The notes: generated from the sequence alone by a model not told the origin. Positions 19,100-39,391 are shown, counted from the stretch's first letter. The stretch is DNA of 64,000 nucleotides from a virus (IMGVR_UViG_3300012642_000011:1-64000); one strand, 5' to 3'. A program made the numbers and translations.

Positions 19100-20623
19100 T
19101 TGCACATGAGACTCTTCAGTAAAAAGAAACAATCTGATCACGCATCTCCTGATGTGCTCAGAGATAGCGCAGATGAGATCATAGAATCAAGAGAATACAA
19201 TAATGCCACTGAAGAAGTGTCTCTTTATATTGGAAGAAATACCACAGATGCAAAGTGCGTGTTCATTGCTTTCAAAGACAATACGAAAGCAACAGTACTA
19301 GTATCATTAAGTGAGATTAAAGGAGTTCTTACAGATTACAAGCCTTATTCTTTGAAGAAGAGGTTAGTGATCAACGGGTACTCTGAAGATGACGCTGAGA
19401 GGATTTCCCGTATGGAGTCATCTTCAGAGTGGGTTGATTTCCCAGAATTGCTGAGAAACGAAATAGGTGAGACTCTGGCAAGAGAGTACTTAGAACATAC
19501 TCTTGTTGCGCAACTGCATTACTTGAACACAAAAGAGGTTACTGAATCCTATATTGATTTCCTTTCTGAAGAGCAACAAGAGGCTCTTCAATCTTGGAAT
19601 GAGCCATCCATTGCTGCACATGAGTTAAGTGACATGGTGGAGTACACTTATACAACAAGAATGACGCAATCCAAAAGAGTTGTATCAGCAGATTACGATG
19701 ATGCAGAAGTAATACTTACCATTACCACTGACATTAATGATACCTCTTCCCCTATTCTTAAAATTATTGATCAGATGGACGATCCTGTTACAATTGATAG
19801 TATCATTAAGAACACAGAGGACTACTATCCTGCATATTATGTGTATGAGAATATTTCCTCCCTTGATGCTTCAGGAGATATTGAGATCAGATTCCCTGAC
19901 TCATTAGAAGACAATCTTCCAGAAGATGAGCCAATCGCTGAAACAATTGATGAGTTGACTGATAATGATGGCGAAAGTACTCAAGAGCACATTGATGACT
20001 TGATTTCAGAACAGGCAGGGACAGATTGGTTCATGGAGAATACTTCAACAGGATCGTTGAAGGAAGTATCTGCTTTTGATCTTTCTACATTGATCAGTCG
20101 AGACCCATCATGGGATCACCTTCTTCCTTATGCAAGAAATAACTCGTTTGATGAATCATTGATCAATGACATTGAGTATTTGGATAATCTTGAGGATCAG
20201 GTTGTTCAAAGAGAATCTGAACTGTCTTCAATGGCAAGACAGTATCTTGAAGGACTAGAAGATTATTCCTATTTCGATAACAGCCAGAGTGCTTCTGAGA
20301 AGAAAGATGACATATCTGACTTGTTCTTCCAGATGGAAACACTGGAAACAGAAAGAGACCTCTTGAATGAAGAGAGAATGACTTATCTTAAAAAACTTTC
20401 ACACTTGTTTACTGATGAGACAATTTCCAAGAGGATTGACGCTATTGCCAATGTAGAGAGAATTGCCAAAAGAGACAGCAAGGAAGACAAGTTGGTGGAA
20501 GCAGAGATGTCAGAAGATATGAGATTTGTCAGATCTGATTACACACCTGAAACAAACCCATTGTATTACAAGATATCTAAGATAATGGGTGTAGAAATTT
20601 TTGAGGAGAGCATTGATGTCTGA
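19100..20623 (+). CDS. hypothetical highly acidic protein
   Basis: 507-aa Asp/Glu-rich ORF. No motif recognised. Confidence 0.4.
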   Translation: MHMRLFSKKKQSDHASPDVLRDSADEIIESREYNNATEEVSLYIGRNTTDAKCVFIAFKDNTKATVLVSLSEIKGVLTDYKPYSLKKRLVINGYSEDDAERISRMESSSEWVDFPELLRNEIGETLAREYLEHTLVAQLHYLNTKEVTESYIDFLSEEQQEALQSWNEPSIAAHELSDMVEYTYTTRMTQSKRVVSADYDDAEVILTITTDINDTSSPILKIIDQMDDPVTIDSIIKNTEDYYPAYYVYENISSLDASGDIEIRFPDSLEDNLPEDEPIAETIDELTDNDGESTQEHIDDLISEQAGTDWFMENTSTGSLKEVSAFDLSTLISRDPSWDHLLPYARNNSFDESLINDIEYLDNLEDQVVQRESELSSMARQYLEGLEDYSYFDNSQSASEKKDDISDLFFQMETLETERDLLNEERMTYLKKLSHLFTDETISKRIDAIANVERIAKRDSKEDKLVEAEMSEDMRFVRSDYTPETNPLYYKISKIMGVEIFEESIDV

Positions 20624-23171
20624 AGAGAACAAAGTTAAAGAAGAAAACGTCGATTACAAGCCTACGATACTTTTCATTCTTGCCATTCTGTTTGCACCTG
20701 GTGTTATCTTGGGCATTCTTCAGCACCATCTCATGTTGAGGCAATTCAGGCAGAGACTCATCATTATTGGGATAACATCATTGGCAATGATTCTTGCCGG
20801 AGTGATAACTATTATCTCCACGGATGCTTTCTCAAAGGCTATGGGATTCTTCACCAGTATTGGTAAACCCCATAATTCATTTGGAGACTTGATTCCCCTC
20901 GGCATTGGTGTCAACCTTATTGTTGCAGCCATCATAGGGTTCTCATTGAGTGTTGAAAGAGTTAAGATGATGAAGGATCAACCGCACTTGACGCACCTGA
21001 AATCAAGCGGTTGGATGTATAATTTCCAATTCAGAAGAACTCCATTTGAAAGCATGAAAAGAAAGAAGACTGTAGAGAGTCTAAAGAATTCAGAGTTGAC
21101 AACAGAGGACGCTTCTCCTTTAGGTATCAGTGAAGAACATAAATCTAGAGACAAAGTTATTTGCAGGTATATGGAAGAAGCCAACAGAGGAACCATTGTC
21201 ACAGGTGGTGTAGGTTCAGGTAAAACAATCACATTGCTTTCTATGGTTCTTGCTGACATGATGGCAAACAGGTCAGTAATATATATTGACTTTAAATCTG
21301 ATCCATCCAATGCTGCGGTCATGGCGAAATGGGCTAAAGAATTCAATATGAACTTCTATCATTTTATTGGTGGATCAGCAAAGAATTATAGGATTCCTAA
21401 TTCCGATGGTCAGTCTCCTTATGACCCGCTTGTATCAGGTGGATCTTCCAAGGCCGATATGTTGCTTGGCATGAGGGATTATGATACTAATGCCGCCGTC
21501 TACAAGGAAGCAATGAGGCAGTTGCTTCAAACATTAATCAATGGTCTTAGTGTTGCAGACAGGAAAACCGCTCCTCATATTGATTGGGATCATGGTGAAA
21601 TATATAAGGTTTATTCTGCAGTAGAAAGTGACTCAAGTTTTATTACTCTTGGTGAGAGTGTTAAAAAGCATCATCCAGAAATAGGTATCCCATTCATGCA
21701 GGTTGCAGAAGCAATCCAGTCGTCTAAGAGCACATTGCATCAGGCTTTTGGAGAACTTCAGGGAACGTTGAGAACAATGATTGCTTCAGGATATGGTCAA
21801 TGGCTGAAAACATCTTCAGAAAGCACAAACAACATCAATCTATTTGAATTGACCAAGACTGGTGGAAATGTTGTTCTTTTCTCCATTGACGCTGATGGTT
21901 CTCCTGACTTTTCAAAGTATTTTGGATCTTTGATCATGGCAGATCTTGCTCAGGTATCTGCAAAGAGAAGAAACAATACTATCAATAATCAGGTTTGTGT
22001 GTACATTGATGAGTTCCAAGCAGTTGACCCCCAAGTACTCAGACCATTGTTGGAGAAAGCACGTTCATCTTATCTTGCTATGACTATTGCTTCTCAGTCT
22101 TTTGAGCAGGTCATTGCTGCAGCAGGCTCTAATGGAGAAGCACAGTTGAACTCTATTCTGGATACAGTGGCAAACTATTTCATTCATGGTGGTTCAGCAC
22201 AAAGTTCAGCAGAGCGAGTTAGTAAAGTCATTGGTCAGGAAAGAGTGACGCGATACTCTCAAACCAATATGTCAAAGACAGGATTCTTCTCCCTTAACTT
22301 CAAGAACAAGAGAAACAACAATGTGAGGATTGAGGAAGTCGAGGATTGGAAAGTTCCGCCAAGAAAGATGATGGGACTAAGCATGCCTAACCCAAGTAAC
22401 GGTTGGAAGGCCACTGCTATCATTGTGAAGAAGTCTTCTGCTGACCCAAGGCATGATGGCATTGTCGGCGCTGTTGCTGAAGAGTGCTGGATGATCCCTG
22501 CATCCAAGGTTCTTGAGAGAGTTGAACTTCCTCCTGTTGTAGATGAGGACGGAGATTTCGTTTCTGAAAACGGTGATCACTATGATGATTCAGATTTTGA
22601 TACCGCATATAATGATGTTGATGCAGAACATGTATCTCAAGTGAGTTATGATGAGTATTATGGTCAGATGAATGAAAGTGATGAGATCATTGATGATGAT
22701 GATTTCACCATTTCTCGAATAGAAGAAGGTGAAATCATCAATGAGGGCATAGAGCAGATTGATGACACAGAGTATCAGCCTTCCAAAAAGGAACCGGAGC
22801 CTCTTGTAGATTCTGGTAATTTCTTTGAATCTCCTGATGCTGCACAGCATATTATAAACCAAAGAAAAGAAAGAGTTAAGAGGGAATTGCCCGCAAAGGA
22901 ATCTTTGATTTCTGATTCAAGGAGAAGCACATCTTCATCTGAAAAGAAGAGTGATCCCACGGTTGCAAAGACGGAGGAGGAGATTTTGAGTAAGGAAAAG
23001 ATGGATTTTTCTGCTCTTTCAGAATCTCCTTTCAAGTCTCGTGCTGATTCTTCTCGTCATGATCAGAGTGTGAGTAGCGCAGTTGATCATTCAGCAATGC
23101 GTTCTGTGTCTACTTTGAGTTCTATGTCATTTGATGATGAAGAAAGTGATGATCTTCCAGATGATGATTAA
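20601..23171 (+). CDS. FtsK/VirD4/TraD-like type IV coupling protein (TcpA-like). N-terminal TM helices, acidic C-terminal tail.
   Basis: Walker A TGGVGSGKTIT and Walker B VYIDEFQ. N-terminal membrane segments. A likely start is ATG 20616, after GAGGAGAG. Ends ...SDDLPDDD. Confidence 0.65.
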   Translation: MRRALMSEENKVKEENVDYKPTILFILAILFAPGVILGILQHHLMLRQFRQRLIIIGITSLAMILAGVITIISTDAFSKAMGFFTSIGKPHNSFGDLIPLGIGVNLIVAAIIGFSLSVERVKMMKDQPHLTHLKSSGWMYNFQFRRTPFESMKRKKTVESLKNSELTTEDASPLGISEEHKSRDKVICRYMEEANRGTIVTGGVGSGKTITLLSMVLADMMANRSVIYIDFKSDPSNAAVMAKWAKEFNMNFYHFIGGSAKNYRIPNSDGQSPYDPLVSGGSSKADMLLGMRDYDTNAAVYKEAMRQLLQTLINGLSVADRKTAPHIDWDHGEIYKVYSAVESDSSFITLGESVKKHHPEIGIPFMQVAEAIQSSKSTLHQAFGELQGTLRTMIASGYGQWLKTSSESTNNINLFELTKTGGNVVLFSIDADGSPDFSKYFGSLIMADLAQVSAKRRNNTINNQVCVYIDEFQAVDPQVLRPLLEKARSSYLAMTIASQSFEQVIAAAGSNGEAQLNSILDTVANYFIHGGSAQSSAERVSKVIGQERVTRYSQTNMSKTGFFSLNFKNKRNNNVRIEEVEDWKVPPRKMMGLSMPNPSNGWKATAIIVKKSSADPRHDGIVGAVAEECWMIPASKVLERVELPPVVDEDGDFVSENGDHYDDSDFDTAYNDVDAEHVSQVSYDEYYGQMNESDEIIDDDDFTISRIEEGEIINEGIEQIDDTEYQPSKKEPEPLVDSGNFFESPDAAQHIINQRKERVKRELPAKESLISDSRRSTSSSEKKSDPTVAKTEEEILSKEKMDFSALSESPFKSRADSSRHDQSVSSAVDHSAMRSVSTLSSMSFDDEESDDLPDDD

Positions 23172-23234
23172 TTATAAGGGTACCACATCAATGATATTGT
23201 TTTCATCAGATTATTTATCCATTTAGGAGCAGGA

Positions 23235-24830
23235 ATGGCACTTCCAAAGAAAAACGAAAGAAACTTTAACCTACCTCAGCCAAGTAGGCCAAAGATGAAT
23301 GAAGGATCGGATTTCCATATTGAATTTGAGGATGATGATCTCCCTGATGACACAATCAATTTGAAGCCTAGGCCAAAAACGCCATATGATGAGACTCCTG
23401 ATGTACCTGATGTGAAATCAAGAGAAGATTCTATGGTTGATGAGTCAAGTGATAATGATGAAGATGCTTTTGAATCAATTTCTTTTGATCAGTTTGAGCA
23501 AGAGGAAAAAGATTTCAACGATAGTGTTGAATATAGCAAACAGACATTGGACGAAATTGCGAGGATGCGTGAGGATTCAAGAGATGCCCCTGATCAGGCA
23601 AAGATCAACAGGGTGAGGAAGCAACGAGATTTAAGGCAAAGAGAAGGGACATCTAATGCTTTGAAGGAAACTAAGGCTTCTTTGAAGCAGAAGAGTCCTT
23701 CTTCAAGAGGCAAAGATCCTCAAGGAAGAGATGAGTTCATTGATAAGGACAAAAAGAAGATCCTCCCCTTTGGTGGCATGGTTGTCAGGGAAAGTCGATA
23801 TGACACCCGAGAAAATCTTGAGAAGAAGCGTAAACTTGTCAGAAATCTTGTCCTAGGATTGATAGCACTTATTGCGGCTATAGTGCTTAAGAATGTTTTT
23901 TTCCCTCCAAAAAACTATAATGAAGAAGAAATCAGAGGCATTGCTAATAGTGAGTTTGGTCGAACAGGATTCCCTGTTGAGGGTGGTGGAGCATTCGCTA
24001 CTCAATTCATTGAAGCATATTTGACAAATGGCAACAAGGGTACTGATAGTATTCTTTCAGATTATCAGAACGGTCAATCTGCTAATGGTTCTGCGCGAAG
24101 AAGTATTGGTGCAGGGATTAAACAATCTCCTGTGGATGGTGCTGTTATTTACCAACAGAATGCTTTAAGCCCTAACAGTGCAAGTTATATCATTGGTGTA
24201 AATGTGCAGAGAACTATCACTACTGAGCAGGCTTCAAACTCCAAGTCAAAGCCAAAGACAGAGACTGTAGTGGACAGAGAGTTCTATAACGTGAATGTGT
24301 ACTACAACTCCGTAACAGGAATGTACTCTATTGCTGAAGGTTCTCCTACATTGGTTGCGCCAGTGGGAATTGGATCTCCTGCCGATAATCCAAAGGCTTT
24401 GATGGTTGGAAATGGAACCGCCAATTCTGAAATTGGGGAAGATGCAAGAGCAACTGTAGAAGGATTCGTCAAGGCTTACATGTCATCATCTCCTCAAGAC
24501 TATAAGAGTCTTCAGCAGTATACTGTATCTGATCCTCCCGTCACGCTGAAGAGCGGTTTTGACAATGCTTATCAACTGGGTTCAGAAACAATTCAGTATA
24601 CATTGTATGAGACAGATGATCCCACTGTGTTCAAGGTTGTTGCAGATCTGAACTTGAAGAAGCAGGTTACTCCTGCAGGAGAAAAGCCTGCAGCCGATGA
24701 TAATAGTGGAACTAACACTACTTCCCACAGTTCTAAATATGTAATCACTATAAAGAAGGGTGGAGAAAAGTATTTGGTGAGCGATTTTAGACCTTATTTG
24801 TATATTGCTGATCCAAATACAGAAAATTAA
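23235..24830 (+). CDS. bitopic membrane protein with acidic N-terminal cytoplasmic region and large extracytoplasmic domain (possible transfer-apparatus component)
   Basis: TM LVLGLIALIAAIVL. N-terminus contains EDDDLPDDT. Sits directly downstream of the coupling protein. Confidence 0.4.
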   Translation: MALPKKNERNFNLPQPSRPKMNEGSDFHIEFEDDDLPDDTINLKPRPKTPYDETPDVPDVKSREDSMVDESSDNDEDAFESISFDQFEQEEKDFNDSVEYSKQTLDEIARMREDSRDAPDQAKINRVRKQRDLRQREGTSNALKETKASLKQKSPSSRGKDPQGRDEFIDKDKKKILPFGGMVVRESRYDTRENLEKKRKLVRNLVLGLIALIAAIVLKNVFFPPKNYNEEEIRGIANSEFGRTGFPVEGGGAFATQFIEAYLTNGNKGTDSILSDYQNGQSANGSARRSIGAGIKQSPVDGAVIYQQNALSPNSASYIIGVNVQRTITTEQASNSKSKPKTETVVDREFYNVNVYYNSVTGMYSIAEGSPTLVAPVGIGSPADNPKALMVGNGTANSEIGEDARATVEGFVKAYMSSSPQDYKSLQQYTVSDPPVTLKSGFDNAYQLGSETIQYTLYETDDPTVFKVVADLNLKKQVTPAGEKPAADDNSGTNTTSHSSKYVITIKKGGEKYLVSDFRPYLYIADPNTEN

Positions 24831-24957: not shown

Positions 24958-25245
24958 ATGGAAATTCTTGCAATTGCAAATGACCTTATCTTTGTACAGG
25001 GACAGGGACTGGGAAACCTTACCAACACTGTCATCAGTGACTGGCTTGGACCAGCTTTCATCGCCATCATCGCTGTTATTGCCATCACGCTTGCCGTGAG
25101 GAAACAGGTTATGGGCTTCCTGACATTCGCACTTATCGCTGTGATCGCGTCTCTCTTCATCTTCAGTGGAGACTCACTCTTTGGCGAGAAGGGAAACCTA
25201 TCAGGTGCGGGTAAGAGCGTTATAGATGAAGTAAGTGGTAACTGA
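24958..25245 (+). CDS. small 2-TM membrane protein (VirB2/TrbC-pilin-like size and topology, speculative)
   Basis: 95 aa with two long hydrophobic helices. Confidence 0.3.
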   Translation: MEILAIANDLIFVQGQGLGNLTNTVISDWLGPAFIAIIAVIAITLAVRKQVMGFLTFALIAVIASLFIFSGDSLFGEKGNLSGAGKSVIDEVSGN

Positions 25246-25271
25246 TTCGTCTCATAATGCGGATAGATAGT

Positions 25272-25306
25272 GGAGAGGTGGCATTTAGCCACCTCTCCTT
25301 ATTTTA
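25272..25306 (+). terminator. rho-independent terminator
   Basis: ggagaggtggc-attta-gccacctctcc followed by ttatttta. Confidence 0.65.
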
Positions 25307-25355: not shown

Positions 25356-26741
25356 ATGGCAGGAAGAGATAAGGCCAAGAGCAAAAATCGTGAGCCAAGG
25401 AAGAAAGGAAAGGTGCTAGACATTGCCATCAATGGAATCATAGACAACATCACATTCTCCAAAAAAGATGTTTATGCCTATTACAAAATCAGTACTATGT
25501 CCTTTGACTTTCTTGATATACAGCAGCGAATCTCAACAGCATTGATGACAGGCAGGGCGCTATCTTCCCTTGCCCTCAATTCTGATCAAGAACTCGAAAT
25601 CCAAATTATTGCTACACACGTCCCTATTGACATTGATGCATGGAGAGCACAGATTGAAGTGGAATCTGAAGGATGGGAAACATCTCCTGAACTAAGCAAC
25701 TACCTTGATGCTCAGGATGCATTCCTTGAAAGAGAGGCATTTACTAAGAAGACAACATACATTGGAGTGAAGATTGCCAATAGAGGTGCTCTTGACATTC
25801 CCAATGTGTTTGAAGCTGGATTGGTAGAAGCAAAGAATTATATTTACGATCTCATTGATAAAATCGCTTCCCCACCTGGCAGCAAAATCTCAGAAGAAGA
25901 AGAAAGAGCAATGAGAAGAAGAGAACAAGACTTCTTTAGAGTGATCAGCACAGGCGACTTCAAGGCGGAAAGAGCAACAACAGAAGAAATCCTCCTCATG
26001 GTTAAAAGACCACTTTATCCTGGTATGCCTTCCCCTTACTTGCTTGTCAGCGATAAGACCAGAGTGGGTCCTGGAGACATTGCCAGAGAGGTCGGATCTC
26101 ATATTGAAAAGAAGTGGAATCACTTGAAGTTCACTCAAATGTTTGAGGACATTGAACTTGAAGGATACAGAGCATCTCTTGTTTTTGAGAAGTTCCCAGA
26201 CACTTTCAATTTCCCTGGTATGCCACCATTTCTCTACTACTCTTCCATGCTCAGGGAACCATTCACCTGTTACGGCAGATTTATTTTGGTCCCATCCTCA
26301 AAGATGAGAAGGGAAGTAGAGAAGAAAAGAAAAGAACACAAGGACGAGATGAAGAACATTGAGGCAGGACAGGATAGATATGATGCCCAGATCACGGGAA
26401 TACCATCAGATGCTTACAAGTCTCTCTCTGACATCAATATTCTGAGTGACATTTTGGCATCTGATGCAAGCCCATGGATTGAAGGAAAATTCAGAATTGC
26501 TGTGGAAGCAAGCACCCTTGAAGATTTGAACAAGAAGTGTGCATCCATTATCTCATCTTATGAAAGACACCAAGTGAAGTTGAGAAGGACAGGTGCCGAT
26601 CAAGTAGATGCTCTGCTTGAGCAGATGCCTGGTGACAGGATGAGAGACAAAGACTTTGTTCAACATGCCAACCTTGCCTTCATGGCAACATCGGGATTTA
26701 ATTTCAATTCAGAGGTTGGCGACGAAATTGATGTTGCATGA
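25356..26741 (+). CDS. hypothetical protein (461 aa, no NTP-binding motif)
   Basis: Good RBS AAGGAGA. No recognisable catalytic motif. Sits inside the transfer cluster. Confidence 0.4.
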   Translation: MAGRDKAKSKNREPRKKGKVLDIAINGIIDNITFSKKDVYAYYKISTMSFDFLDIQQRISTALMTGRALSSLALNSDQELEIQIIATHVPIDIDAWRAQIEVESEGWETSPELSNYLDAQDAFLEREAFTKKTTYIGVKIANRGALDIPNVFEAGLVEAKNYIYDLIDKIASPPGSKISEEEERAMRRREQDFFRVISTGDFKAERATTEEILLMVKRPLYPGMPSPYLLVSDKTRVGPGDIAREVGSHIEKKWNHLKFTQMFEDIELEGYRASLVFEKFPDTFNFPGMPPFLYYSSMLREPFTCYGRFILVPSSKMRREVEKKRKEHKDEMKNIEAGQDRYDAQITGIPSDAYKSLSDINILSDILASDASPWIEGKFRIAVEASTLEDLNKKCASIISSYERHQVKLRRTGADQVDALLEQMPGDRMRDKDFVQHANLAFMATSGFNFNSEVGDEIDVA

Positions 26742-26760: not shown

Positions 26761-27552
26761 ATGGCAAAGAAGTCTTCAGGAATGGGTTTGGGTAACGCGA
26801 TCACGAGTATTGTGGCGTTATTCTTGGTAGGCGGTTTAGTTTACGCTGCCATGAATGTAAACAACGTCAAATCTTCAAAGGATCTCATAGAGAACCTAAG
26901 GAGTCAATCTGATCGATGGTCTCAGTGTGTTACCAGCTGGTTTAAAGATTGTGATTACATTGAAGGCTCTTTGAAGCCAGGTGGTAAGGACAGCAAAGAA
27001 TCTCCCGCTCCAACAAAAGAAGAAGTTGGCAAGATGGAGAACAAACTTAAGGGAATTGCTGTTTCGGCACCAGTGACACAAGGTTATAGCAGATCCGATT
27101 GGAAGCATTGGAGTGATCCAGATGGTAACGGCTGTGATTCTCGACAGGACACCCTTAAACGTGACGGAACTAACATTGCAATGCGATCAGGCACTGCATG
27201 CAGAGTTGAGTCAGGTAAATGGGTTGATCCGTACAGCAATGTAGAGATTACAGACCCAGGTGAACTTGATATTGATCACATCATACCCCTTGAGTACGCA
27301 TCATCTCATGGTGGAGTGAGTTGGGATAAAAATACGAAAGAGTCATTTGCCAACGATCCTTTGAATCTGATTGCTGCATCAGCATCAGAGAACAGAAAGA
27401 AAGGAAGCAAAGGCCCCTCTGAGTACATGCCACCCAATAAGTCACTCCATTGCGATTATGCTGTCTCATGGATCACTGTGGCAGATAAGTACAAAGTATC
27501 CGTCACAGAAGACGATAAAAAGGAATTGTCTAAAGCTCTTGCTACCTGCTGA
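26761..27552 (+). CDS. membrane-anchored secreted HNH/DUF1524-type endonuclease
   Basis: N-terminal signal anchor ITSIVALFLVGGLVYAAM. ...DIDHIIPL...W...NL...ASENRKKG is an HNH-like motif set. Confidence 0.5.
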   Translation: MAKKSSGMGLGNAITSIVALFLVGGLVYAAMNVNNVKSSKDLIENLRSQSDRWSQCVTSWFKDCDYIEGSLKPGGKDSKESPAPTKEEVGKMENKLKGIAVSAPVTQGYSRSDWKHWSDPDGNGCDSRQDTLKRDGTNIAMRSGTACRVESGKWVDPYSNVEITDPGELDIDHIIPLEYASSHGGVSWDKNTKESFANDPLNLIAASASENRKKGSKGPSEYMPPNKSLHCDYAVSWITVADKYKVSVTEDDKKELSKALATC

Positions 27553-30684: not shown

Positions 30685-32142
30685 ATGATCAACGATAACA
30701 ACACCAAGGTTTCCGAATTTCTCAAGGAAAAGGAGGTGGTTGTCGATACATCAATTCTTCTTGATTTCAGCCCCTCCATGTTGCAGGAATTCAGCAATTG
30801 CGTTTTTGTGATTCCAGCAGTGGTGATCAGGGAGTTGGAGGAAAAGAGATCACACAGCACGCTTGGCTATTCTGCAAGAGCATGGTTGCATCTGATTGAG
30901 GATACTCTCATCTCTGATGGTAAGGATAATTTTGAAAAGGGTGTATTGATCCCAGAAACAGATAATGTGTATCTATCTATTGAGATGAATCACAAGAATC
31001 AGAGCACACTTCCACTTCCTCTTCAGGATGGAAGCAATGACAGCACAATCCTTGCCGTCCTTAAGAATCGATCCGAAGAGGAAAAAGCCAAAAGCGCAGA
31101 TGAGAGAAAAGATGTAGTGCTTCTTTCAAGAGATCTACCTATGAGGATCAATGCCAAGTTGCATCTTGAAAAAGATGCTTATGATCTTTCAACTGAAGTG
31201 CGACCTTTCGATGGTGTTTATCATGTAAACCTCTCCGATGAGGAAGTCAACATGGCCTATGATGAGGATGATAGTGGTGTGGTCTCTGCTGAGTTCCAAA
31301 CTCTTGTTCTCAGTAGACTGCCAGAGGGCGCTGCAAGTAGTGCTCTCATCGTGATAAATCAGAACAAGGCAATGACCTATTTGATGGTCAATAGGAAGAT
31401 TGTCAAGAATCTTTCTAGTGAAGCATGTAGAATCAAAGCAAGGAATAATAGCATCAATATTGTTCCAAGATCAATTGAGCAGAAGGCATTGGTGGAATAC
31501 ATCAATGAGTCATCAGATAGCATTCCTGTCGTCTCTGTAGGTGGAAATGCAGGTGGTGGAAAGACGATGGTTGCTCTTGCTGCCTCTATCGCTCAAGTAA
31601 AAGACGCGCATACGCCTTACAGAAAGGTGCTTGTCTTTAGGAGTCTTCACGAGATGGGTCAGGGTCAGGAGATGGGATTCCTGCCAGGTACTATTGAAGA
31701 CAAGATGGCACCATGGGCAGGTGCTATTGATGATGCTTTGGAATCCATTGCCACAATTTCCAATGAGTCTAAGAATAAGAGTACATCAAAGGAGAATATT
31801 AATAAGGAGAAGGAGAAACTGTATGAGTTCATTGAAGTACAGCCTATCACTTACCTCAGAGGCCGCTCCATCTCCAACGCTATTTTGATTATTGAAGAGG
31901 CGCAGAACTTCTCTTCTTCAGAGTTGCTGCACATTCTTTCCAGAGCAGGAAAGGATTCTAAGATCATCCTCACTTTTGATGCGGCTCAGGTAGATAATAA
32001 GTACTTAAGGTCTGGTCAGAATGCTGATGTGTGGAAGTTGATCGACCAGCTTAAGGACAAGGGCGTTGCTGCTCACATCACATTGAAGAAGACAGAGAGG
32101 TCTAAGATTGCAGAGGTGGCATCTGCTATCTTGGAAAAGTGA
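30685..32142 (+). CDS. PIN-domain PhoH-like ATPase (YlaK/PhoH2 type)
   Basis: N-terminal PIN (VVVDTSILLD). PhoH P-loop VSVGGNAGGGKT. Confidence 0.7.
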   Translation: MINDNNTKVSEFLKEKEVVVDTSILLDFSPSMLQEFSNCVFVIPAVVIRELEEKRSHSTLGYSARAWLHLIEDTLISDGKDNFEKGVLIPETDNVYLSIEMNHKNQSTLPLPLQDGSNDSTILAVLKNRSEEEKAKSADERKDVVLLSRDLPMRINAKLHLEKDAYDLSTEVRPFDGVYHVNLSDEEVNMAYDEDDSGVVSAEFQTLVLSRLPEGAASSALIVINQNKAMTYLMVNRKIVKNLSSEACRIKARNNSINIVPRSIEQKALVEYINESSDSIPVVSVGGNAGGGKTMVALAASIAQVKDAHTPYRKVLVFRSLHEMGQGQEMGFLPGTIEDKMAPWAGAIDDALESIATISNESKNKSTSKENINKEKEKLYEFIEVQPITYLRGRSISNAILIIEEAQNFSSSELLHILSRAGKDSKIILTFDAAQVDNKYLRSGQNADVWKLIDQLKDKGVAAHITLKKTERSKIAEVASAILEK

Positions 32143-32192: not shown

Positions 32193-35100
32193 GTGATATT
32201 GAAAATAGAGTCAGCGGCCTTCTCTTTTTGTGTCTATTTAGAGAAAACTGATACCAGAACCAAAAAGACGAGCAGGAGAATAACCTTGAGCGGGAATGCA
32301 AACTACCTGAGTTCTCAGTACACTTCACCAGTTGAGACGAAGAAGATCACATCTGTTTTCAATGCAGCCAGTGCGATTGCTCTGGCCTTAATTGTGCTTG
32401 TGATGACCTTTCTTCCTTTAGGTATTTCTTCTCTTACAAATAATAATTCAGGTTCTCCCGATCAGCATTCTGTTTCTGTAGGTCAGGCAGAGGCATCATT
32501 GTTCTGTAGCCCAGGACTAGGCGTTGGAATGGGTGATAAAAATGATTGGACTACACCACTAAGTACTTTCCCTAATGGAGAATCAGAGAACAGAGTATTC
32601 ACTGCACAAGAGGCATTTGCTAACAACGCTTTCTTTGTCAACTTTTATGGTGAGAATGAGAACCCTGGCTGGTTCTTCTTTGCAAGAGATGTGAACCAAG
32701 AGGCATGGGGTGAGAACCCACGCATGGAAGACATTCAGAGTTCACGAGGTGGCGCTGGGTGTATTATAAACCCTCTAGGAAGAACTGTTGCTAATCTTGG
32801 TCTTGCACTTGCCAATGGATTCTCGTTTGTCTCAGGAGCGGTTATCAGTTGGGCGTTCAACCCTGAATTCATCTGCCAGCCAAATGCCCCAGAAGGCACA
32901 GTATGCTTTAACCTTCTTGGATTTATTGGTGGAGATGGAGGAAGTGAAGAAGGTCTGATCGCTTCTCTCACCAAGAGTATTTATTTCCCTCTCCTTGTTT
33001 TGATGTCTGTGCTTTCTGGAATGTGGATTATTTGGGAAGGAGGCAAGAGACGAGTAAGGTCAGCACTAGGTGGAGCATTGTGGTCTATTGTCGTGGTTAT
33101 GCTCGGTATTGGATTCCTCGGTAACCCACAACTTCTTGCACGTGCCCCTATGGAGATCACTAACACCATGGCATCTTGTGTAATTGGCGTCATGGGTGGA
33201 GATAACTGTTTGACAGGAGAACGTGGTGTATCTTTGGTGCCTGAGAATGGTACATCATCAAGAGATAACCTGTGTGTTTCCTCATCAAATGGTTCTGGAA
33301 TTGGATCAGGAAAAACCATGTCCATGACAGTCAATTCCATTAATTGCCAAATTTGGAAGAGTTTTGTTCTTAACCCCATTTCCTACGGATCTTTTGGTAC
33401 AAGTTTTGAAAGACTTGATGCATATAGTCCTCAGGTTAGACCATTGATTGAGAAAGCAGGATATAGTCCAGAAGATTTCTGTGTCAACATGGGGTCAAGT
33501 AGGTCTGCTGACAGCATGAAGAATGGTATTCTCGTTCTAGACAAGTCAGATGTGCAGATTTGTAACTTGATGATCTATCAAGCATTCTTGTCTTCAAAGG
33601 CTTCAATGCAACCAGACATTACCATAGATGCTCTCAATAATCCTGAATCAAGAGACGCTGATTGGTATAAGTTGGTCAACGTCATTGCCCAAGATCAAGG
33701 AATGTGGTCTTCATGGAATTCCAATAATTCAATGGGATTCACAGAAGACTTGACCATGAGTGGATTGGCTGTCTTCATGTCCATTGTTGGTGGGCTGATC
33801 TTGATGGCTATTGGACTCTCTGCCCTCATGTTCTACATACTGTCTTTGATCATGTTGATCTTTGCTCCCTTCTTCTTGCTCTTTGCAGCACATCCAGGTA
33901 GAGGAAAGAGGATCTTCTTCGGCTGGCTTGAGAATGTTGTTGGCTACCTGATCAAATATGTCGTATCCGCTTTGTTCTTGGTCATCACTATAGCATTCTA
34001 TGGTGCAGCACTTGCAGGCATGGACAACATTTTGATGACTATGATTTTCATCATCCTTATCAGCCTTGTTCTGTGGTACTACAGGTCAGAAATAATGGAA
34101 CTCATTGGTCGTGTCAATATGGGTGGAGAACAGATAGGACGTAAGACCACTGATGCGCTTAAGCAGAGGTTCGGCAACGATGGAGAACGTTGGAAGAGAG
34201 TCAGCAGAAGTGCAATGGGCGGTGCTGTGGGATCAGCCTTTGCTGGTGGAAGCCTCAAGGCTGGAGTTGTGGATGGTGCAACCAGAGAACTCAAGAAGGG
34301 CAACACCACTCTGGCAGCCACTATGCGTGCTATGGATCGTACAAGCCTTCAGAACAGGAAAGAACTCAAGGCCAAGATGGAGCAGTCTGCAAATGCTGTC
34401 AGAAATGCAGAGGCTACACACAATGCAGCAGTCTCTTCTTACAACACTGTAAAGCAGGATGCAGAGGGAAGATCGGAATCTGTACGAGATCATCAGGCAA
34501 AGCTTTCTTATCTTGACCAGAACAAGAAGGCCAACGATCAGGCTGCTCAGGACGTACTCTATGACATGCAAGAATCCGAATACAATAAGCATCAACAATT
34601 CATTAATGACATCAATAATGATGAATCATTGAGTGATGAAGAGAAGCAGGAGGCCATCTCCCAGTTCGAGCAGACCAGTTCTACCAAGAGCAACCAGCAA
34701 ATGTATGCTGACCTTGCCGAGTTGAAAGAACTTGAAAATGCTATCCGTGACATGAAGTTGAACATTCAAGTTGCTGAAGCCAACGGCGAAGATACTACTG
34801 CGCTTGAGAATCAGTTGCAAGACCTCAAGGATGAGAAGCAAGAACTCATGGGAAGGCATTCTACTGAAGAATGGAACAATGCCAAGGAGAAGTTCGAGAT
34901 GGAGTTCGAAACCGAACTCTCTATCAGAGACATTGAGCGCTTTGATGCCGATTCCGAATCCGCAATGGTTGAGCATGTTGTGAAACTTGCTGAAGACAAA
35001 GAAGCACTTGCAAACATCTCTGATGATGTAACAAGTCGTGGAAATGATCTTGCTATTGCAGCATCTACATTGGCAGCATCAAAGATTGCTCATGATGCTT

Positions 35101-37976
35101 ACTCCAACAAATACTATGATTTGAATGCATCTGATCTGTACACCCACAAGGATGTTGAGAGGACAGAAAATGAAGTCATGAAGAGTCAGGATGTTCAAAG
35201 AGTCATTGATGGACAAATGACACCAGAAGAGTTCGCTGAGAAGTGGAACGGTGAAGACTACATGGACACCAACTACTACCAGAGATTCAGAGATTCTGAG
35301 AGAGTTATGGACCCTGAAGATGAATACGATGTTCAAGACTTCAAGGACAAATGGGGAAATGATGCTACACCATTGAACACTAATGCTCTCAAGGATAATG
35401 CAAATCTCTCTCACATAGAGGATGCTGATCGTTTTAGAAGAACATCTGAAGGTGTGTCTATTGATGAGTTTGACATGGACACCGCTTCAAGAAGAGACTT
35501 CAATTGGGAAGACACCATTGATCCTCGCGGTAATGATGATCCAAACGATCTCCCTAACGATGATGATCTAAGAGATCCTAACGGAAACGACGATCCAAAC
35601 GATCTTCCTGACGATGATAATGTCAACAGTGGTGATAATGAGGGTCCAAGAACACGCGACTATGAGCGCCCACTCGATAGCGATAGGACTACAGGCAGGT
35701 TTAATACCGCTGCTGATGATGAGCCTATTGATTACGAGATGCCTACGCCTGAAACCATGCCATATGGTTATGATGACTCTTATAGTGATGATCTGCCTGA
35801 TGATGACGATGCGCCATTCGTTGATCCTGTTACAAATGAGAATTATACTCAGGAAGAAGTCGAAGAGATGCAGGCTGCAGGCTACCAGTTCTCCACTCCT
35901 GATACTGACAAGCCATATACTCGTGAGGACTTGTCAAGATACAGTGATGAAGAGATCGCAGAAATGTATCCTGATCCTGCTGTATCTGAATCTGCAAGAG
36001 ACTTTGATGCTCCTGCACGAACCGCTGAGGACTTGTCAAGGTACAGTGATGAAGAGATCGCAGAGATGTACCCTGATCCTGCTGTATCTGAATCTGCAAG
36101 AGACTTTGATGCTCCTGCACGAACCGCTGAGGACTTGTCAAGGTACAGTGATGAAGAGATTGCAGAGATGTATCCTGATAACAGACCTGAAGTTTCATCT
36201 TCAACGGATCTTCCATCTGCAACAACACCTGTTGATACACGAGCAGAGACAGTACCACCTGTTGTTGTTCCTGTTGATCCAGTACAACAGCCACAGGACC
36301 AGCATGTTGATGCATCTTTTGACAGTACCTCAAGTCAGGACAGAAATGTGGACAGCGTACCTGAGGTGGAGACTCCTGTTGAAACCGACACAACAACTGC
36401 CCGTAACGAAAGACCAGTTCGTGATCAGGGACCAGTTCGTGACGAAGTACCAATGGCTGTTCCAACATCTGAGGACAGAAGAGTTCCTTCAGGAGAGATG
36501 CCTGATGTTATCCCTTCAACACCTGTAGAATCAATCGTTGACAGGCCAGATGAGACTCTGACACGAGTGGAATCTGCACCAGTTGAGGGAACACGAGATC
36601 CAGTGCAAACAGAGGAAGTTCGCACACCACGCTCATCTGATGAGACAAGTCGTGTAGTGAATGAGAACAATGATCGTGTGGTTCCAAGTGTTGACAACTC
36701 TGATGATAGAGCAGTCCCAACTCAAAATGACAATAATGTCTTGAGGGATGCCGAAAATGAGTTGAGAGATGCTGATGTTGCTAACAGAAATGCACAAGAG
36801 TACTTGAGGGCTGAGGCTGAAAGACTTGCTAGGGCACAGCAGGCAAATACTGATACTGTAGCAGACAGGGCGGTAGTAGCAGATAGCCTTTCTGAAGGGG
36901 CGATAAGAGATCTCCCATCAAGGTCTGACAACATGAATGATGCTGTTGTAGATAGAGAGGGTGTTGCTCCAACTATTCCTGTTAGGGAAGCCCCTGTTGC
37001 CTCTGAGAAGCGTCAGAATGAGTTCAGCGCACAATCACGTCAAGATGATGTGAGAGCGCCGCAGATCGATAGCAGTGCTCTTCCAGAGAACATTGTGGTA
37101 GATGATGCATCTTCTGTTGCTCCTACTCCATCTGTGGATCGCAATGTGGCAACTCCTGTAAACAACGTTGACACAACACCTGCTGAAAGCAGAAGAAGCA
37201 ATGTGGATGCAACAGAAGCAAGACCTGTAATTAACGAGACAAGGCAGGTTCCTTCTGAGAAGCCAGCAGTGGTAGAAAACAATGAGTCTGCACCTAGAGT
37301 GAATGACAGAATCGACAATGTAGTGATTGATAGAGATGCATCAGCAACTCCTTCAGACACCAGAACTGAGGCACCTAGAGCAGAAAAGGTTGAAACAGTT
37401 AAACCACAGCGTGATACACCTGTTGAGCCAAAGGTAGTGACTGTAGAGAAGGAAGTTCCTGCCGTTGTTGAGAGGACAGTTCCTTCAGAGAATAATGCAT
37501 CGCAGAGGGTAGTTGAGAATGATTCTCAGACACGTCCTTCTGGCGAGGGTTCTTCACAGAGACGTGATGGTGAGGAGACAACGTTGGCTGATAGAGTTGG
37601 ATCTTTCTTCAGAAGTAAGGATGAATCTTCTACTGCTGGAAATGATAGAAGAAGTGAAAATGTCGATTCTAACAGAGGTGAGAGCGATTCTACGAGACAA
37701 AAAGCAAGGTCTATCTCTGATAATGCTAGAAGAATCAGAGAGCAGGCAGAGGCGGCTTTGAGAGAGGCTGACAAGATCGGTTCTGAAGCAGACAGGGTAG
37801 AGAGAAATGTGGGAAGTCGAAACGTGGACCCACGAGGAACAATGGCTGATAGGGATACGGATTCTGAGGTAAGAAGATATATGTCTGAAAACAAATCTGA
37901 ACCTGACAATAAGCCTAAGTTGAGAAGGGTTGCTCCCAAGGTGGACAGAAGAATGAAGGAAGAGCGTGATTCGTGA
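32193..37976 (+). CDS. Giant (up to 1927 aa) polytopic membrane protein, VirB6/TrbL/TcpH-like. N-terminal extracytoplasmic domain, TM cluster, coiled coil, long disordered acidic/Pro-Val-Thr-rich tail.
   Basis: TM block FAPFFLLFAAHPGRGKR is paralogous to LPFVLLVGILPGPGRR (54976) and FAPVVLLVGCFPGQGWE (59166). The start is uncertain (TTG 32285 after AGGAGA is plausible). Contains 102-bp tandem repeats. Confidence 0.55.
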   Translation: MILKIESAAFSFCVYLEKTDTRTKKTSRRITLSGNANYLSSQYTSPVETKKITSVFNAASAIALALIVLVMTFLPLGISSLTNNNSGSPDQHSVSVGQAEASLFCSPGLGVGMGDKNDWTTPLSTFPNGESENRVFTAQEAFANNAFFVNFYGENENPGWFFFARDVNQEAWGENPRMEDIQSSRGGAGCIINPLGRTVANLGLALANGFSFVSGAVISWAFNPEFICQPNAPEGTVCFNLLGFIGGDGGSEEGLIASLTKSIYFPLLVLMSVLSGMWIIWEGGKRRVRSALGGALWSIVVVMLGIGFLGNPQLLARAPMEITNTMASCVIGVMGGDNCLTGERGVSLVPENGTSSRDNLCVSSSNGSGIGSGKTMSMTVNSINCQIWKSFVLNPISYGSFGTSFERLDAYSPQVRPLIEKAGYSPEDFCVNMGSSRSADSMKNGILVLDKSDVQICNLMIYQAFLSSKASMQPDITIDALNNPESRDADWYKLVNVIAQDQGMWSSWNSNNSMGFTEDLTMSGLAVFMSIVGGLILMAIGLSALMFYILSLIMLIFAPFFLLFAAHPGRGKRIFFGWLENVVGYLIKYVVSALFLVITIAFYGAALAGMDNILMTMIFIILISLVLWYYRSEIMELIGRVNMGGEQIGRKTTDALKQRFGNDGERWKRVSRSAMGGAVGSAFAGGSLKAGVVDGATRELKKGNTTLAATMRAMDRTSLQNRKELKAKMEQSANAVRNAEATHNAAVSSYNTVKQDAEGRSESVRDHQAKLSYLDQNKKANDQAAQDVLYDMQESEYNKHQQFINDINNDESLSDEEKQEAISQFEQTSSTKSNQQMYADLAELKELENAIRDMKLNIQVAEANGEDTTALENQLQDLKDEKQELMGRHSTEEWNNAKEKFEMEFETELSIRDIERFDADSESAMVEHVVKLAEDKEALANISDDVTSRGNDLAIAASTLAASKIAHDAYSNKYYDLNASDLYTHKDVERTENEVMKSQDVQRVIDGQMTPEEFAEKWNGEDYMDTNYYQRFRDSERVMDPEDEYDVQDFKDKWGNDATPLNTNALKDNANLSHIEDADRFRRTSEGVSIDEFDMDTASRRDFNWEDTIDPRGNDDPNDLPNDDDLRDPNGNDDPNDLPDDDNVNSGDNEGPRTRDYERPLDSDRTTGRFNTAADDEPIDYEMPTPETMPYGYDDSYSDDLPDDDDAPFVDPVTNENYTQEEVEEMQAAGYQFSTPDTDKPYTREDLSRYSDEEIAEMYPDPAVSESARDFDAPARTAEDLSRYSDEEIAEMYPDPAVSESARDFDAPARTAEDLSRYSDEEIAEMYPDNRPEVSSSTDLPSATTPVDTRAETVPPVVVPVDPVQQPQDQHVDASFDSTSSQDRNVDSVPEVETPVETDTTTARNERPVRDQGPVRDEVPMAVPTSEDRRVPSGEMPDVIPSTPVESIVDRPDETLTRVESAPVEGTRDPVQTEEVRTPRSSDETSRVVNENNDRVVPSVDNSDDRAVPTQNDNNVLRDAENELRDADVANRNAQEYLRAEAERLARAQQANTDTVADRAVVADSLSEGAIRDLPSRSDNMNDAVVDREGVAPTIPVREAPVASEKRQNEFSAQSRQDDVRAPQIDSSALPENIVVDDASSVAPTPSVDRNVATPVNNVDTTPAESRRSNVDATEARPVINETRQVPSEKPAVVENNESAPRVNDRIDNVVIDRDASATPSDTRTEAPRAEKVETVKPQRDTPVEPKVVTVEKEVPAVVERTVPSENNASQRVVENDSQTRPSGEGSSQRRDGEETTLADRVGSFFRSKDESSTAGNDRRSENVDSNRGESDSTRQKARSISDNARRIREQAEAALREADKIGSEADRVERNVGSRNVDPRGTMADRDTDSEVRRYMSENKSEPDNKPKLRRVAPKVDRRMKEERDS
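35925..36180 (+). repeat. Tandem repeat of period 102 bp (about 2.5 copies), in frame, encoding 34-aa repeats DLSRYSDEEIAEMYPDPAVSESARDFDAPARTAE
   Basis: Near-identical units start at 35925, 36027 and 36129. Confidence 0.85.
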
Positions 37977-39391
37977 TGGCTTTGAAGGATGATCTAAAAT
38001 CAAAGGCCGTTGATGCTGTTTCTTCTAATTCAGAAAGAATTCAGAAAACAAGAGATACGATTCGTCGTGCTCGGAAAGTTGCGCAACTTTCAACTTCCAC
38101 TTTCTCCAACTTGGCTTCTGTTTTAATGAATCCTGCAACATGGGTCGCTGCTCTCGTTGTGGCTCTTTTATTCAGTATTGTCGTTGGCGGAATGGCTGTT
38201 TCTCAAACTTTTGGAAGGAATGAGAATGCTGATGGTTGCTTTGGAATCGGTGGTCCCAGAGGCAAAGGAGGCGGAAGTGTAAACGTTCCCGATACAGGAG
38301 ACATGTGGGGAAATGCTAATGCTATTGCTACATGGCTATTGTCTCATAACTTTGCTGTTCTGGGAAACAAGCCAATGACTTTGAATCAGGCTGCTGGAAT
38401 CCTTGGAAACTGGGGTCAGGAGTCAATGTATAACCCTTCTGCAGTTCAGCCCGGTCAATCAAGGCCAGATTTAAGCAATGAAGAGATCCTTTCATGGGGA
38501 GATGTCGGAGGAAAGGCTATTGGTCTTGCTCAGTGGGATGGTGTTCGTCGTCCACGATTAGTCCAGTTTGCTCAAGAGAGGGGTGTTCAATGGAATGATA
38601 TGTCAATCCAACTTGAATTCTTTGCTTATGAACTTGAGAATGAGATGTCTGTGATGACTTTTGAATTTGGATTCAATGACATCACCAAGAATGCAGAAGA
38701 AATGGTGATTGCATTTGAGAAGGGATTCGAGCGAGCAGGAAAGCCACACTATGAAAGAAGAATCCAGTTCGCCAATGACTTCCTTGCACAGTTCAATGGC
38801 GGTTATGCTGGTGGAACATCAGGTGGAAGTTGTACTATGAATTCTGCCAATACTTTAGATACATCTGATGTTGCACAGTTGGCTGCAAGACTGTCATACC
38901 CAACATCAGGTCAATCTTATGTTGATCCTAGTGATCTCAGTGGTCAGTCTGTGGCTAAAGCAGAGTATATTCAGGCTAAGAAGCAGGCTATGGATACAGC
39001 AGACAGAGATCCTTTGGAAACCCTGTATGCGTCTTGTGACCGATTTGTTGCTACAGTATTAAAACTTACTGTGGATAAGAATGTCCCATGGGGAGCAACA
39101 AGTCATCAGACTGAGTACTTTGCTAATTCTCCTAACTGGGAGAGGTACACAAAGAAGTCTGAAGCAAAGCCGGGAGACGTTTGGGTAACACAAACAAGTG
39201 GTCACATCATCCTTTATATTGGTGATGTGAACGGAACTGACAGTATTGCCCATGCATCTTATCAGGATAGGGTTGCTGGAATCGATCCATCTAGTTATTT
39301 GAATGAAAATTTGGTAGATACAAGTGGTAGAGCATACTACGGTTACAGGTTTGTGGGAGAGAGGTCTGGAAATGGCGAACTGGTTTATTGA
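37973..39391 (+). CDS. Secreted peptidoglycan hydrolase: phage-tail-lysozyme-like domain plus C-terminal CHAP/NlpC-P60 domain
   Basis: GNANAIATWLLSHNF...AAGILGNWGQESMYNP (tail-lysozyme-like). YASCDRFVATV and SGHIILYIGD (Cys and His of a CHAP-type fold). N-terminal TM. Translationally coupled to the giant gene. Confidence 0.55.
   Translation: MMALKDDLKSKAVDAVSSNSERIQKTRDTIRRARKVAQLSTSTFSNLASVLMNPATWVAALVVALLFSIVVGGMAVSQTFGRNENADGCFGIGGPRGKGGGSVNVPDTGDMWGNANAIATWLLSHNFAVLGNKPMTLNQAAGILGNWGQESMYNPSAVQPGQSRPDLSNEEILSWGDVGGKAIGLAQWDGVRRPRLVQFAQERGVQWNDMSIQLEFFAYELENEMSVMTFEFGFNDITKNAEEMVIAFEKGFERAGKPHYERRIQFANDFLAQFNGGYAGGTSGGSCTMNSANTLDTSDVAQLAARLSYPTSGQSYVDPSDLSGQSVAKAEYIQAKKQAMDTADRDPLETLYASCDRFVATVLKLTVDKNVPWGATSHQTEYFANSPNWERYTKKSEAKPGDVWVTQTSGHIILYIGDVNGTDSIAHASYQDRVAGIDPSSYLNENLVDTSGRAYYGYRFVGERSGNGELVY

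Follow-up and report, generated by a model that had tools for sequence, protein, structure and literature searches.

The DNA analysed here is a 64-kb stretch from the IMG/VR collection (IMGVR_UViG_3300012642_000011:1-64000), and "the window" below means this whole stretch. It has a GC content of ~41–42%, carries almost all of its genes on the + strand from 8.5 kb onward, and about two thirds of its open reading frames (ORFs) have no family hit. Between 17 and 41.7 kb lies a transfer gene cluster, in which we recognised the core of a type IV secretion system (T4SS) whose VirB4 protein is represented by a stand-alone N-terminal domain. The core genes are the following:

20616–23171, + strand: VirD4-type coupling protein (TrwB_AAD_bind, 2.6e-9; TraG-D_C, 4.3e-9; SXT_TraD, 7.7e-18)
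23235–24830, + strand: TcpC/VirB8-like bitopic protein with a disordered N-terminus, a transmembrane (TM) segment at residues 205–223 and an extracytoplasmic domain
24958–25245, + strand: possible VirB2/TrbC- or TcpD-like protein of 95 aa with two TM segments (NCBIfam TcpD, E = 0.04)
25356–26741, + strand: stand-alone VirB4 N-terminal domain, 461 aa (NCBIfam TcpF, 1.2e-11 over model positions 3–429 of 813)
32193–37976, + strand: giant VirB6/TrbL-like channel protein, 1927 aa (TrbL, PF04610, 6.5e-10)
37976–39391, + strand: membrane-anchored cell-wall hydrolase (Phage_lysozyme2, 4.1e-27; family profile against phi29 gp13, 7e-6)

A preliminary description of this DNA had placed a coupling ATPase at 20601 and had called the 1927-aa protein VirB6/TrbL-like. 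Both identifications hold, the former through the VirD4-type domains and the latter through the TrbL domain. The coupling protein, which also matches the CD1115 family, consists of three N-terminal TM segments, a P-loop ATPase domain (Walker A GGVGSGKT) and an acidic tail, and its start is probably the ATG at 20616 rather than 20601, as metagenome gene calls give a protein of 851 aa. The same description had missed the genes at 23235–24830, 24958–25245 and 25356–26741, which lie between the coupling protein and a nuclease gene and complete the T4SS core. The product of 23235–24830 has no direct Pfam match itself, and it is assigned to the TcpC/VirB8 family through its homologues: five of the eight family members, which are joined by phmmer at 1e-34 to 3e-63, match PF12642 (TpcC; best 7.4e-12). 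For the small protein at 24958–25245, two of eight homologues match the TrbC/VirB2 pilin family PF04956 (2e-3) and one matches T4SS_pilin, and the family keeps a W(I/L)(G/T)P motif together with the two TM segments; these matches weakly suggest a small VirB2/TcpD-like protein. Because the three formerly unrecognised genes are now identified, the core fits the Gram-positive Tcp layout, and the earlier view that the set does not fit the canonical Gram-positive (Tcp/Prg) arrangement has to be given up.

The order of the cluster genes is kept in at least seven divergent relatives, which range from 27 to 64% GC and share only 33–46% identity. This conservation of gene order is far beyond chance. 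All cluster genes are intact and closely packed.

The 461-aa protein encoded at 25356–26741 covers positions 6–430 of 815 in phrog_24614 and contains no Walker motifs. An AlphaFold2 model built with 32 homologues reached a predicted local distance difference test score (pLDDT) of 81.5, and in a Foldseek comparison with this model the top 14 matches were all TrwK/VirB4 chains of the R388 T4SS (E = 1e-13 to 6e-11), the next match having an E value of 0.7. Sequence searches of the PDB with the 461-aa protein, the 531-aa TcpC/VirB8-like protein and the coupling protein found no match, and the structure comparison alone gave one. By domain match and predicted fold, 25356–26741 encodes the VirB4 N-terminal domain and nothing else.

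The short length of this protein is conserved. Its homologue clusters fall within 451–489 aa in 33 of 33 cases, down to 33% identity, with 29 invariant columns; because all of them have this length, the gene is not a pseudogene and the truncation is a fixed trait. In a profile search of 1.84 billion representatives, the first ~47 matches were mostly of ~440–490 aa, the others being short entries that are probably partial and a single protein of 1148 aa (P0187). The next-ranked matches were full-length VirB4s of 805–850 aa, which aligned over their residues ~4–440; the Walker A (GSPGGGK[ST]) and Walker B (IDEAW) motifs of these proteins lie in their second half. The 1148-aa protein has a second copy of the N-terminal domain ahead of a complete VirB4, and the profile matches it in four stretches. 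Only four proteins of the window contain a Walker A motif (the coupling protein, PhoH, an SMC-like protein and a CpaF-like ATPase), none of them VirB4-like. When the ATPase domains of full-length VirB4 relatives were compared with the window, only the P-loop of the coupling protein matched, and no VirB4 ATPase domain was present in the 64 kb. The preliminary description had reported that VirB4 is absent; this stands for the ATPase domain and fails for the N-terminal domain. A literature search for "split VirB4" found no papers.

For the search of the ATPase half, IMG/VR was searched with an alignment of ATPase halves, and nine long contigs of 245–420 kb were obtained. A separate ORF of 394–401 aa (PF12846/AAA_10, 2.4e-49) is present on nine of nine of these long contigs, the same ones that bear the N-terminal gene. 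Each of the nine has one copy of each VirB4 half on the same strand, with the ATPase gene 90–207 kb downstream, and one 727-kb contig likewise bears both halves (P0017, P0349). The ATPase-only family comprises at least 275 clusters of 380–407 aa, the 120 listed spanning 364–407 aa. The two halves co-diverge: across eight elements their pairwise identities correlate at r = 0.99, with paired values such as 0.71/0.67, 0.52/0.53, 0.46/0.49 and 0.36/0.36. This is as expected if one ancient split was followed by joint inheritance under selection. For the element in the window, we infer an ATPase half because one is present on 9/9 long related contigs; its expected identity to the query is ~47–49%, below the 120 best matches listed.

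A split intein joining the two halves was considered and ruled out, as both ends lie at the inter-domain linker. Trans-splicing is unlikely because neither half has intein-sized extra sequence at the break. We also considered a gene ~8.5 kb past the right end of the window (L007 22316–23318) as the missing ATPase and rejected it: every one of its homologues (at least 196) stops ~15 aa beyond the motif GGGTGGGK(S/A), and the downstream ORFs are unrelated. This gene (homologues P0034–P0153) encodes a highly conserved ~336-aa membrane protein with the P-loop-like motif SPMV(L/F)I(A/G)GGTGGGK(S/A) near its end, and in about one tenth of the homologues (474–487 aa) an intein (PF14890/PF07591) is inserted exactly before this motif. 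One unsplit VirB4 (P0201, 1090 aa) likewise has an intein, in its Walker A region.

Between the VirB4 N-terminal gene and the giant VirB6-like gene, the operon contains additional genes:

26761–27552, + strand: membrane-anchored GmrSD_C/HNH (His-Me) nuclease (GmrSD_C, 6.3e-14)
27573–28460, + strand: NikA-like ribbon-helix-helix (RHH) protein of the relaxosome-accessory type (PF21983, 1.9e-6, residues 192–240)
28492–29073, + strand: TadE-like pseudopilin 1, with the leader DxGDS-LVS, one TM segment and four conserved Cys
29119–29718, + strand: TadE-like pseudopilin 2, a paralogue of pseudopilin 1 with the same leader motif and cysteine pattern
29715–30446, + strand: TadE-like pseudopilin 3 of a second subfamily, with the shared leader and another C-terminal domain; orthologues in five relatives
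30685–32142, + strand: PIN-PhoH (PhoH2-type) nuclease/ATPase (PhoH, 1.1e-36; PIN_4, 1.7e-14)

An RHH/MobC-like protein, three TadE-like pseudopilins, a membrane HNH nuclease and a PIN-PhoH protein had all been proposed before, and each proposal is borne out. The nuclease has a basic N-terminal tail, one TM segment and a G/S linker, and its Cys pairs and the motif DIDH(V/I)IPL are kept across eight lineages; according to the positive-inside rule, it is predicted to have a type-II anchor with the catalytic domain outside the membrane. In a 63% GC lineage (L017 9667–10437), the nuclease homologue has DF in place of the catalytic DH (NLDFVVP) with the rest of the operon intact, and this nuclease may be inactive because of that replacement. 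The NikA-like domain is present in eight of eight homologues, and the protein is among the best-conserved small cluster proteins (phmmer 7e-50 to 2e-101 to relatives). The three pseudopilins have no Pfam match of their own and are assigned as TadE-like via homologues, which are linked by phmmer at 1e-32 to 1e-15 and match PF07811; for pseudopilin 1 the homologue carrying the TadE domain is L021:13315–13893 (link 1e-32). Their common leader is (K/R)SD(R/K)GD(S/T)-LVS followed by a TM segment, in which Glu+5 is not conserved and position +5 is usually Ser. The PIN-PhoH protein was found in identical form on 20 metagenome contigs and is conserved in six of seven lineages.

In the relatives, the VirB4 ATPase half stands in a second locus of Tad-pilus type. 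Its order was the same in every relative read: T2SSF, T2SSE (568–626 aa), T2SSF, a ~200-aa protein, TcpE, the VirB4 ATPase, SAF/RcpC (CpaB-like) and ParA/CbiA (TadZ-like). A RadA-like gene lies upstream of the locus and a ligase gene nearby. Also upstream of the Tad operon are pilin-like genes of ~100 aa, with the leader DRGD-LVQT and a hydrophobic helix, matching the leader of the TadE-like proteins in the window. Tad and T4SS genes are thus interleaved at both loci, since pseudopilins stand in the T4SS operon and TcpE and the VirB4 motor stand in the Tad operon. In one relative (L089, 1–893 and 4680–7823), the Tad T2SSE ATPase (1047 aa) and the RadA-like gene (915 aa) are interrupted by LAGLIDADG/Hom_end domains of inteins or homing endonucleases. 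On the minus strand past the Tad operon (L083–L097), an extra T2SSE-family ATPase of 529–840 aa is paired with a 690–780-aa protein, and in L097/L098 this pair directly adjoins the ligase gene. Because this further T2SSE-family ATPase is present, the relatives encode several secretion-type ATPases.

The large channel protein, the hydrolase and the right part of the window extend the system. The 1927-aa protein has a TM segment at residues 60–78, five TM segments within residues 255–630 and then a ~1270-aa acidic, repeat-bearing tail; its orthologues in relatives are of 911–1483 aa (6e-60 to 6e-146). Its gene contains a tandem repeat at 35924–36179 (2.5 copies of a 102-nt unit, 96% identity) whose unit encodes ...EDLSRYSDEEIAEMYPDPAVSESARDFDAPART..., and the product is of 1862, 1896 or 1927 aa in different metagenomes. 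These length variants suggest variation of repeat number in the acidic tail. The ATG of the hydrolase gene overlaps the TrbL stop codon (TGATG), and the tail-lysozyme domain is clear. The translationally coupled tail-lysozyme part of the earlier annotation is therefore retained, and its CHAP domain was not verified: the C-terminal part has a conserved SCDRF...GH (Cys...His) pattern and matches NlpC_P60 only at E = 0.14, so that the second domain is possibly a papain-fold Cys peptidase. The further genes and features within and around the cluster are:

17133–18995, + strand: DnaG-type primase (Pfam Zn_ribbon_DnaG, 3.6e-28; DNAG_N; Toprim)
19100–20623, + strand: 507-aa acidic protein without a Pfam, NCBIfam or PHROG match
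25272–25298, + strand: terminator-like hairpin with an 11-bp stem (8 G-C pairs) followed by a T-run, directly 3' of the small two-TM gene
39372–41673, + strand: four small membrane proteins (319, 174, 181 and 77 aa) with one TM segment each, packed behind the hydrolase
50381–51661, + strand: CpaF/TadA-type secretion ATPase (T2SSE, 4e-25; PDB CpaF 6e-38 against VirB11 1.4e-16)
54976–59169, + strand: second giant TrbL-domain paralogue, 1397 aa, seven TM segments (BLASTP 1e-22 to the TrbL region of the 1927-aa protein)
59166–62483, + strand: third giant TrbL-domain paralogue, 1105 aa, seven TM segments (BLASTP 1e-25 and 3e-24 to the other two)

The secretion ATPase at 50381, which had been described as CpaF/VirB11-family, is closer to CpaF than to VirB11; the NCBIfam VirB11 and TadA families both match it at ~1e-38, under their curated cut-offs. 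The proteins at 54976 and 59166 are true TrbL membrane-domain paralogues, as the preliminary description had supposed, and the 1397-aa one has no Pfam match of its own. At the left end, the DnaG primase is the neighbour of the cluster in seven of seven related loci (phmmer 2e-74 to 5e-163). The next slot, at 19100, holds an ORF of 530–710 aa in relatives; its position is kept and its sequence is not, with detectable similarity only in L023 (8e-7). The hairpin at 25272–25298 is the best terminator-like site within 16.5–36 kb, its function being predicted. The four small membrane proteins gave no family matches.

The window is one part of a much larger element. Its right part also lies on a metagenome contig of 332,269 bp whose left end falls at a TnpB gene, at about 47.5 kb of the window. 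As this contig begins only there, the element measures at least ~380 kb, and more than 80% of it falls outside the 64 kb. Identical copies of window proteins were found on 17–22 metagenome contigs per protein, and relatives of the element reach 828 kb, with 27–64% GC. A megablast of the transfer cluster against 72,556 plasmids and 50,697 phages returned no nucleotide-level relatives, and tRNA and Rfam scans of the window returned nothing. The carrier is a widespread uncultured family of 0.2–0.8 Mb elements that is not in genome catalogues. The TnpB gene at window 46449–47798 is of the IS605 type (Cas12f-like TNB, OrfB_IS605), a second TnpB-like piece lies just left of window position 1 (L012 3–683), and the TnpB copies coincide with the break points of short-read contigs of this element. 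The element has its own DNA and transcription toolkit at window 3285–18995, 42554–43489 and 47916–54311. Specifically, the DNA and metabolic part includes an R2K ATP-grasp protein, an NAD-dependent ligase, a divergent GyrB-like protein, ThyX, an RNase T-like exonuclease, glutaredoxin and DnaG, and the other part includes a sigma-70-type protein and a weaker sigma-like one (51658), an SMC/SbcC-like ATPase, and HU together with a weaker HU-like protein. A single-stranded DNA-binding protein (SSB) gene lies just beyond the window edge.

Taken together, the best-supported description is a monoderm Tcp-like conjugation-type T4SS with three changes: a split VirB4, entanglement with Tad genes, and an added nuclease and PIN-PhoH protein. 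The preliminary description of a hybrid DNA-transfer or secretion set that mixes T4SS and Tad-pilus parts and is not textbook stands. We consider that window 17–41.7 kb is probably the principal operon for the mating channel and for coupling on a giant plasmid-like extrachromosomal element (at least ~380 kb) in a monoderm host, and that it is descended from the compact T4SS of Firmicutes and Actinobacteria, of which Tcp of pCW3 is an example. In the mechanism that we propose, the two VirB4 halves would join non-covalently at the membrane to form a working VirB4 motor. The CpaF-type ATPase, the platform proteins, the ~100-aa pilin and the three TadE-like pseudopilins would build a surface fibre, and this Tad fibre may make or stabilise the contact between donor and recipient. 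The presumed substrate is DNA: the NikA-like protein would bind the transfer origin and pass the DNA to the coupling protein, and the hydrolase would open the cell wall. The HNH nuclease and PIN-PhoH may be lineage-specific additions, with candidate roles in processing or excluding DNA at the surface and in processing DNA or RNA in the cytoplasm.

Several observations weigh against this interpretation. No relaxase was detected in any window ORF (Pfam E <= 0.01, E <= 5 for ten unknown proteins, and NCBIfam), in agreement with the earlier report that the 64 kb contains no HUH relaxase. A canonical VirB4 and relaxase directly outside the window would have refuted the preliminary description; the 10 kb past the right end of the window hold neither. 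The relaxase negative covers the window and these 10 kb, and the origin of transfer (oriT) was not searched for; a relaxase would have to lie on another part of the element or belong to a type not recognised here. The element's own ATPase-half gene was not located, and the candidates that were looked up (P0306, P0392, P0388 and P0428) belong to other elements (GC 35–49%, different samples). Pfam scans of the window found no TadB/TadC platform, CpaB, TadZ or Flp pilin; in relatives, TadB/TadC, CpaB-like, TadZ-like and pilin genes all lie beside the VirB4 ATPase half. Neither the window nor any other locus that was read showed a prepilin peptidase (TadV/A24). We considered as TadV a polytopic protein of 180 aa encoded immediately beyond the right end of the window, and rejected it, as it has no A24 match and its GAEDYK motif is not kept in the L038 homologue. 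In addition, a nuclease outside the cell fits poorly with a machine that exports DNA, IMG/VR lists relatives of the element as viral contigs (108–420 kb), two independent and highly specific markers found no relative among 185,579 species-representative genomes, and the family is known from sequence alone, with its transfer function read from the genes.

The most serious rival is a DNA-uptake machine, in which a Tad-type pilus would capture external DNA, the outward-facing HNH nuclease would cut or strip it in the manner of EndA/NucA in Gram-positive competence, and a T4SS-derived channel would import it, analogous to Helicobacter ComB or archaeal Ced. The conserved extracytoplasmic membrane-anchored nuclease within the operon, the TadE-like pseudopilins with a CpaF-type ATPase and the lack of a detected relaxase in the window would all suit such a machine. 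Micrococcus luteus needs Tad pili to be transformed, and the ComB T4SS serves uptake. However, the VirD4-type coupling protein and the NikA-like protein are hallmarks of export and the relaxosome and are kept in seven of seven related lineages, the unsplit relatives are ordinary conjugation clusters, and the L017 lineage has lost the catalytic His of the nuclease yet keeps the rest. The pilus-plus-nuclease uptake idea of the preliminary description is accordingly kept as a rival, and we regard it as unlikely. The coupling and NikA-like proteins likewise point to a DNA substrate where adhesion, biofilm formation or delivery of protein effectors on behalf of the host cell is considered, by means of a Tad fibre and a T4SS channel and with the three giant, long-tailed acidic VirB6-like proteins as surface or effector modules. 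Such a function would account for three TrbL paralogues with very long variable tails and for the many single-pass membrane proteins, and it would agree with the lack of a detected relaxase; but the closest relatives are plasmid conjugation systems, primase and SSB genes stand in the neighbourhood, and we judge a non-DNA function quite unlikely.

That the element is a huge phage or phage-plasmid, using T4SS and Tad genes for virion-independent spread or host manipulation, would agree with the IMG/VR listing of its relatives, with the jumbo-phage-typical ligase, GyrB-like protein, ThyX, primase, sigma factors and HU of the window, and with the phage-tail-lysozyme domain of the hydrolase. This nevertheless seems very unlikely. 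Ten large or unannotated window proteins gave no PHROG structural match, and similar coupling proteins or ATPase halves are missing from GenBank phages except in ICE-like inserts (ICE, integrative and conjugative element). Hydrolases of the Phage_lysozyme2 type are common in Gram-positive T4SSs. The comparable Inocle elements of oral Streptococcus are cell-associated and not in filtrate (PMC12340149). A decaying remnant, in which the 461-aa gene would be a truncated, non-functional VirB4 and the cluster dead, could explain why neither a VirB4 ATPase domain nor a relaxase is found in the window. Yet all 33 clusters are truncated at the same point and share 29 invariant columns, the 461-aa model folds confidently, a partner ATPase gene is retained and co-diverges with it, and the operon genes are intact and tightly packed; we regard decay as highly improbable.

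Returning to the conjugation-type system, its arrangement bears on how VirB4 is used and recognised. VirB4 has been treated as the universal single-chain signature of every T4SS and as the marker for finding conjugative elements, and marker-based detection will mis-score these elements because VirB4 is stably split into genes ~100–200 kb apart. The two domains must be capable of functioning on separate chains, which makes the split a natural experiment on VirB4 domain function. With the ATPase half in the Tad operon and pseudopilins in the T4SS operon, the system suggests pilus-assisted conjugation in monoderms, where conjugative pili are not established, and it bears on the question of how uncultured elements of 0.2–0.8 Mb spread. 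A bolder version, which we put forward only tentatively and consider rather unlikely, treats the VirB4 domains as subunits bridging two machines. The N-terminal domain would stay among the VirB8-, VirB2- and VirB6-like proteins of the T4SS channel, and the ATPase with TcpE would sit on the Tad motor; the hybrid would move 0.3–0.8 Mb replicons between monoderm cells, with the Tad fibre extended and retracted through or beside the channel and PIN-PhoH perhaps replacing a classical relaxase.

Among known systems, the nearest in layout is Tcp of Clostridium perfringens pCW3 (TcpA, C, D, E, F, G, H), which has the same parts in the same core order: coupling protein, TcpC-like protein, small membrane protein, VirB4 (TcpF model), VirB6/TcpH and wall hydrolase (TcpG-like). 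Like the T4SS class of Firmicutes and Actinobacteria, the system in the window has no outer-membrane core proteins. Unlike in Tcp, VirB4 is in relatives divided between two distant genes, and TcpE, its VirB3-like partner, goes with the ATPase half; the HNH nuclease, the NikA-like protein, the three TadE-like proteins and PIN-PhoH sit between VirB4 and VirB6; VirB6 is two to three times larger and is present as three paralogues; and no TcpM-type or other relaxase was seen. With Tad/Flp (type IVc) pili the system shares the CpaF-type ATPase and the three TadE-like proteins in the window, and two T2SSF proteins, T2SSE, a CpaB-like protein, a TadZ-like protein and a short pilin in relatives. It differs from classical Tad systems in that the genes are interleaved with T4SS genes at two loci, the leader has Ser at +5, no prepilin peptidase or secretin was found, and the context is monoderm. 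The Streptomyces TraB/FtsK-like systems for double-stranded DNA transfer have in common with it a membrane-anchored P-loop translocase-like protein and no relaxase in view. TraB systems, however, need no channel parts, whereas here VirD4-specific domains are found with VirB4, VirB6, a VirB8-like protein and a hydrolase; the TraB-like reading offered in the preliminary description is set aside, since the ATPase is of the VirD4 type and is accompanied by channel components.

At the level of the whole element, the closest description is that of the Inocles, giant elements of oral Streptococcus of 245–368 kb that bear insertion sequences (IS), are lost on culture and are reported to have VirB4 and VirD4 in all cases (Kiguchi et al. 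2025; PMC12340149). The likeness, compared by description and not by sequence, lies in the giant size, the IS, the mostly unannotated content and the absence from isolate genomes, and two IMG/VR contigs among the relatives (L034 and L035, 244 kb, ~27% GC) match the described size and composition of Inocle-delta. On the other side, the window has 42% GC against 32% and 24%, InoC (~454 aa) is not in the window, where its domain PF13814 (replication-relaxation) gave no match, although the gene may be on another part of the element, and neither a split VirB4 nor Tad genes are described in the Inocle paper (PMC12340149). Membership in the Inocles is proposed as a hypothesis, because the GC differs, the InoC domain is absent from the window and the comparison is by description only.

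On plasmids, both VirB4 halves have their nearest relatives in Nocardiopsis, in unsplit genes for 847 aa with "conjugal transfer proteins" on either side (e.g. NZ_CP074136.1, annotated "ATP-binding protein"; tblastn 4e-18 and 6e-46). Together with these, the metagenomic protein P0198 (profile E ~1e-90) is the closest full-length VirB4 to both halves. All plasmid matches of both halves are from Actinomycetota or Bacillota, i.e. monoderms. In the unsplit metagenomic relative L094, which encodes P0198 (817 aa), the order is a 93-aa protein, a NikA-like protein, TcpE, VirB4, TrbL and an M23 hydrolase. The clusters of L094 and Nocardiopsis have VirB4 in one gene, are compact (~10 kb) and are without Tad components, HNH nuclease or PhoH, and they display the compact ancestral arrangement.

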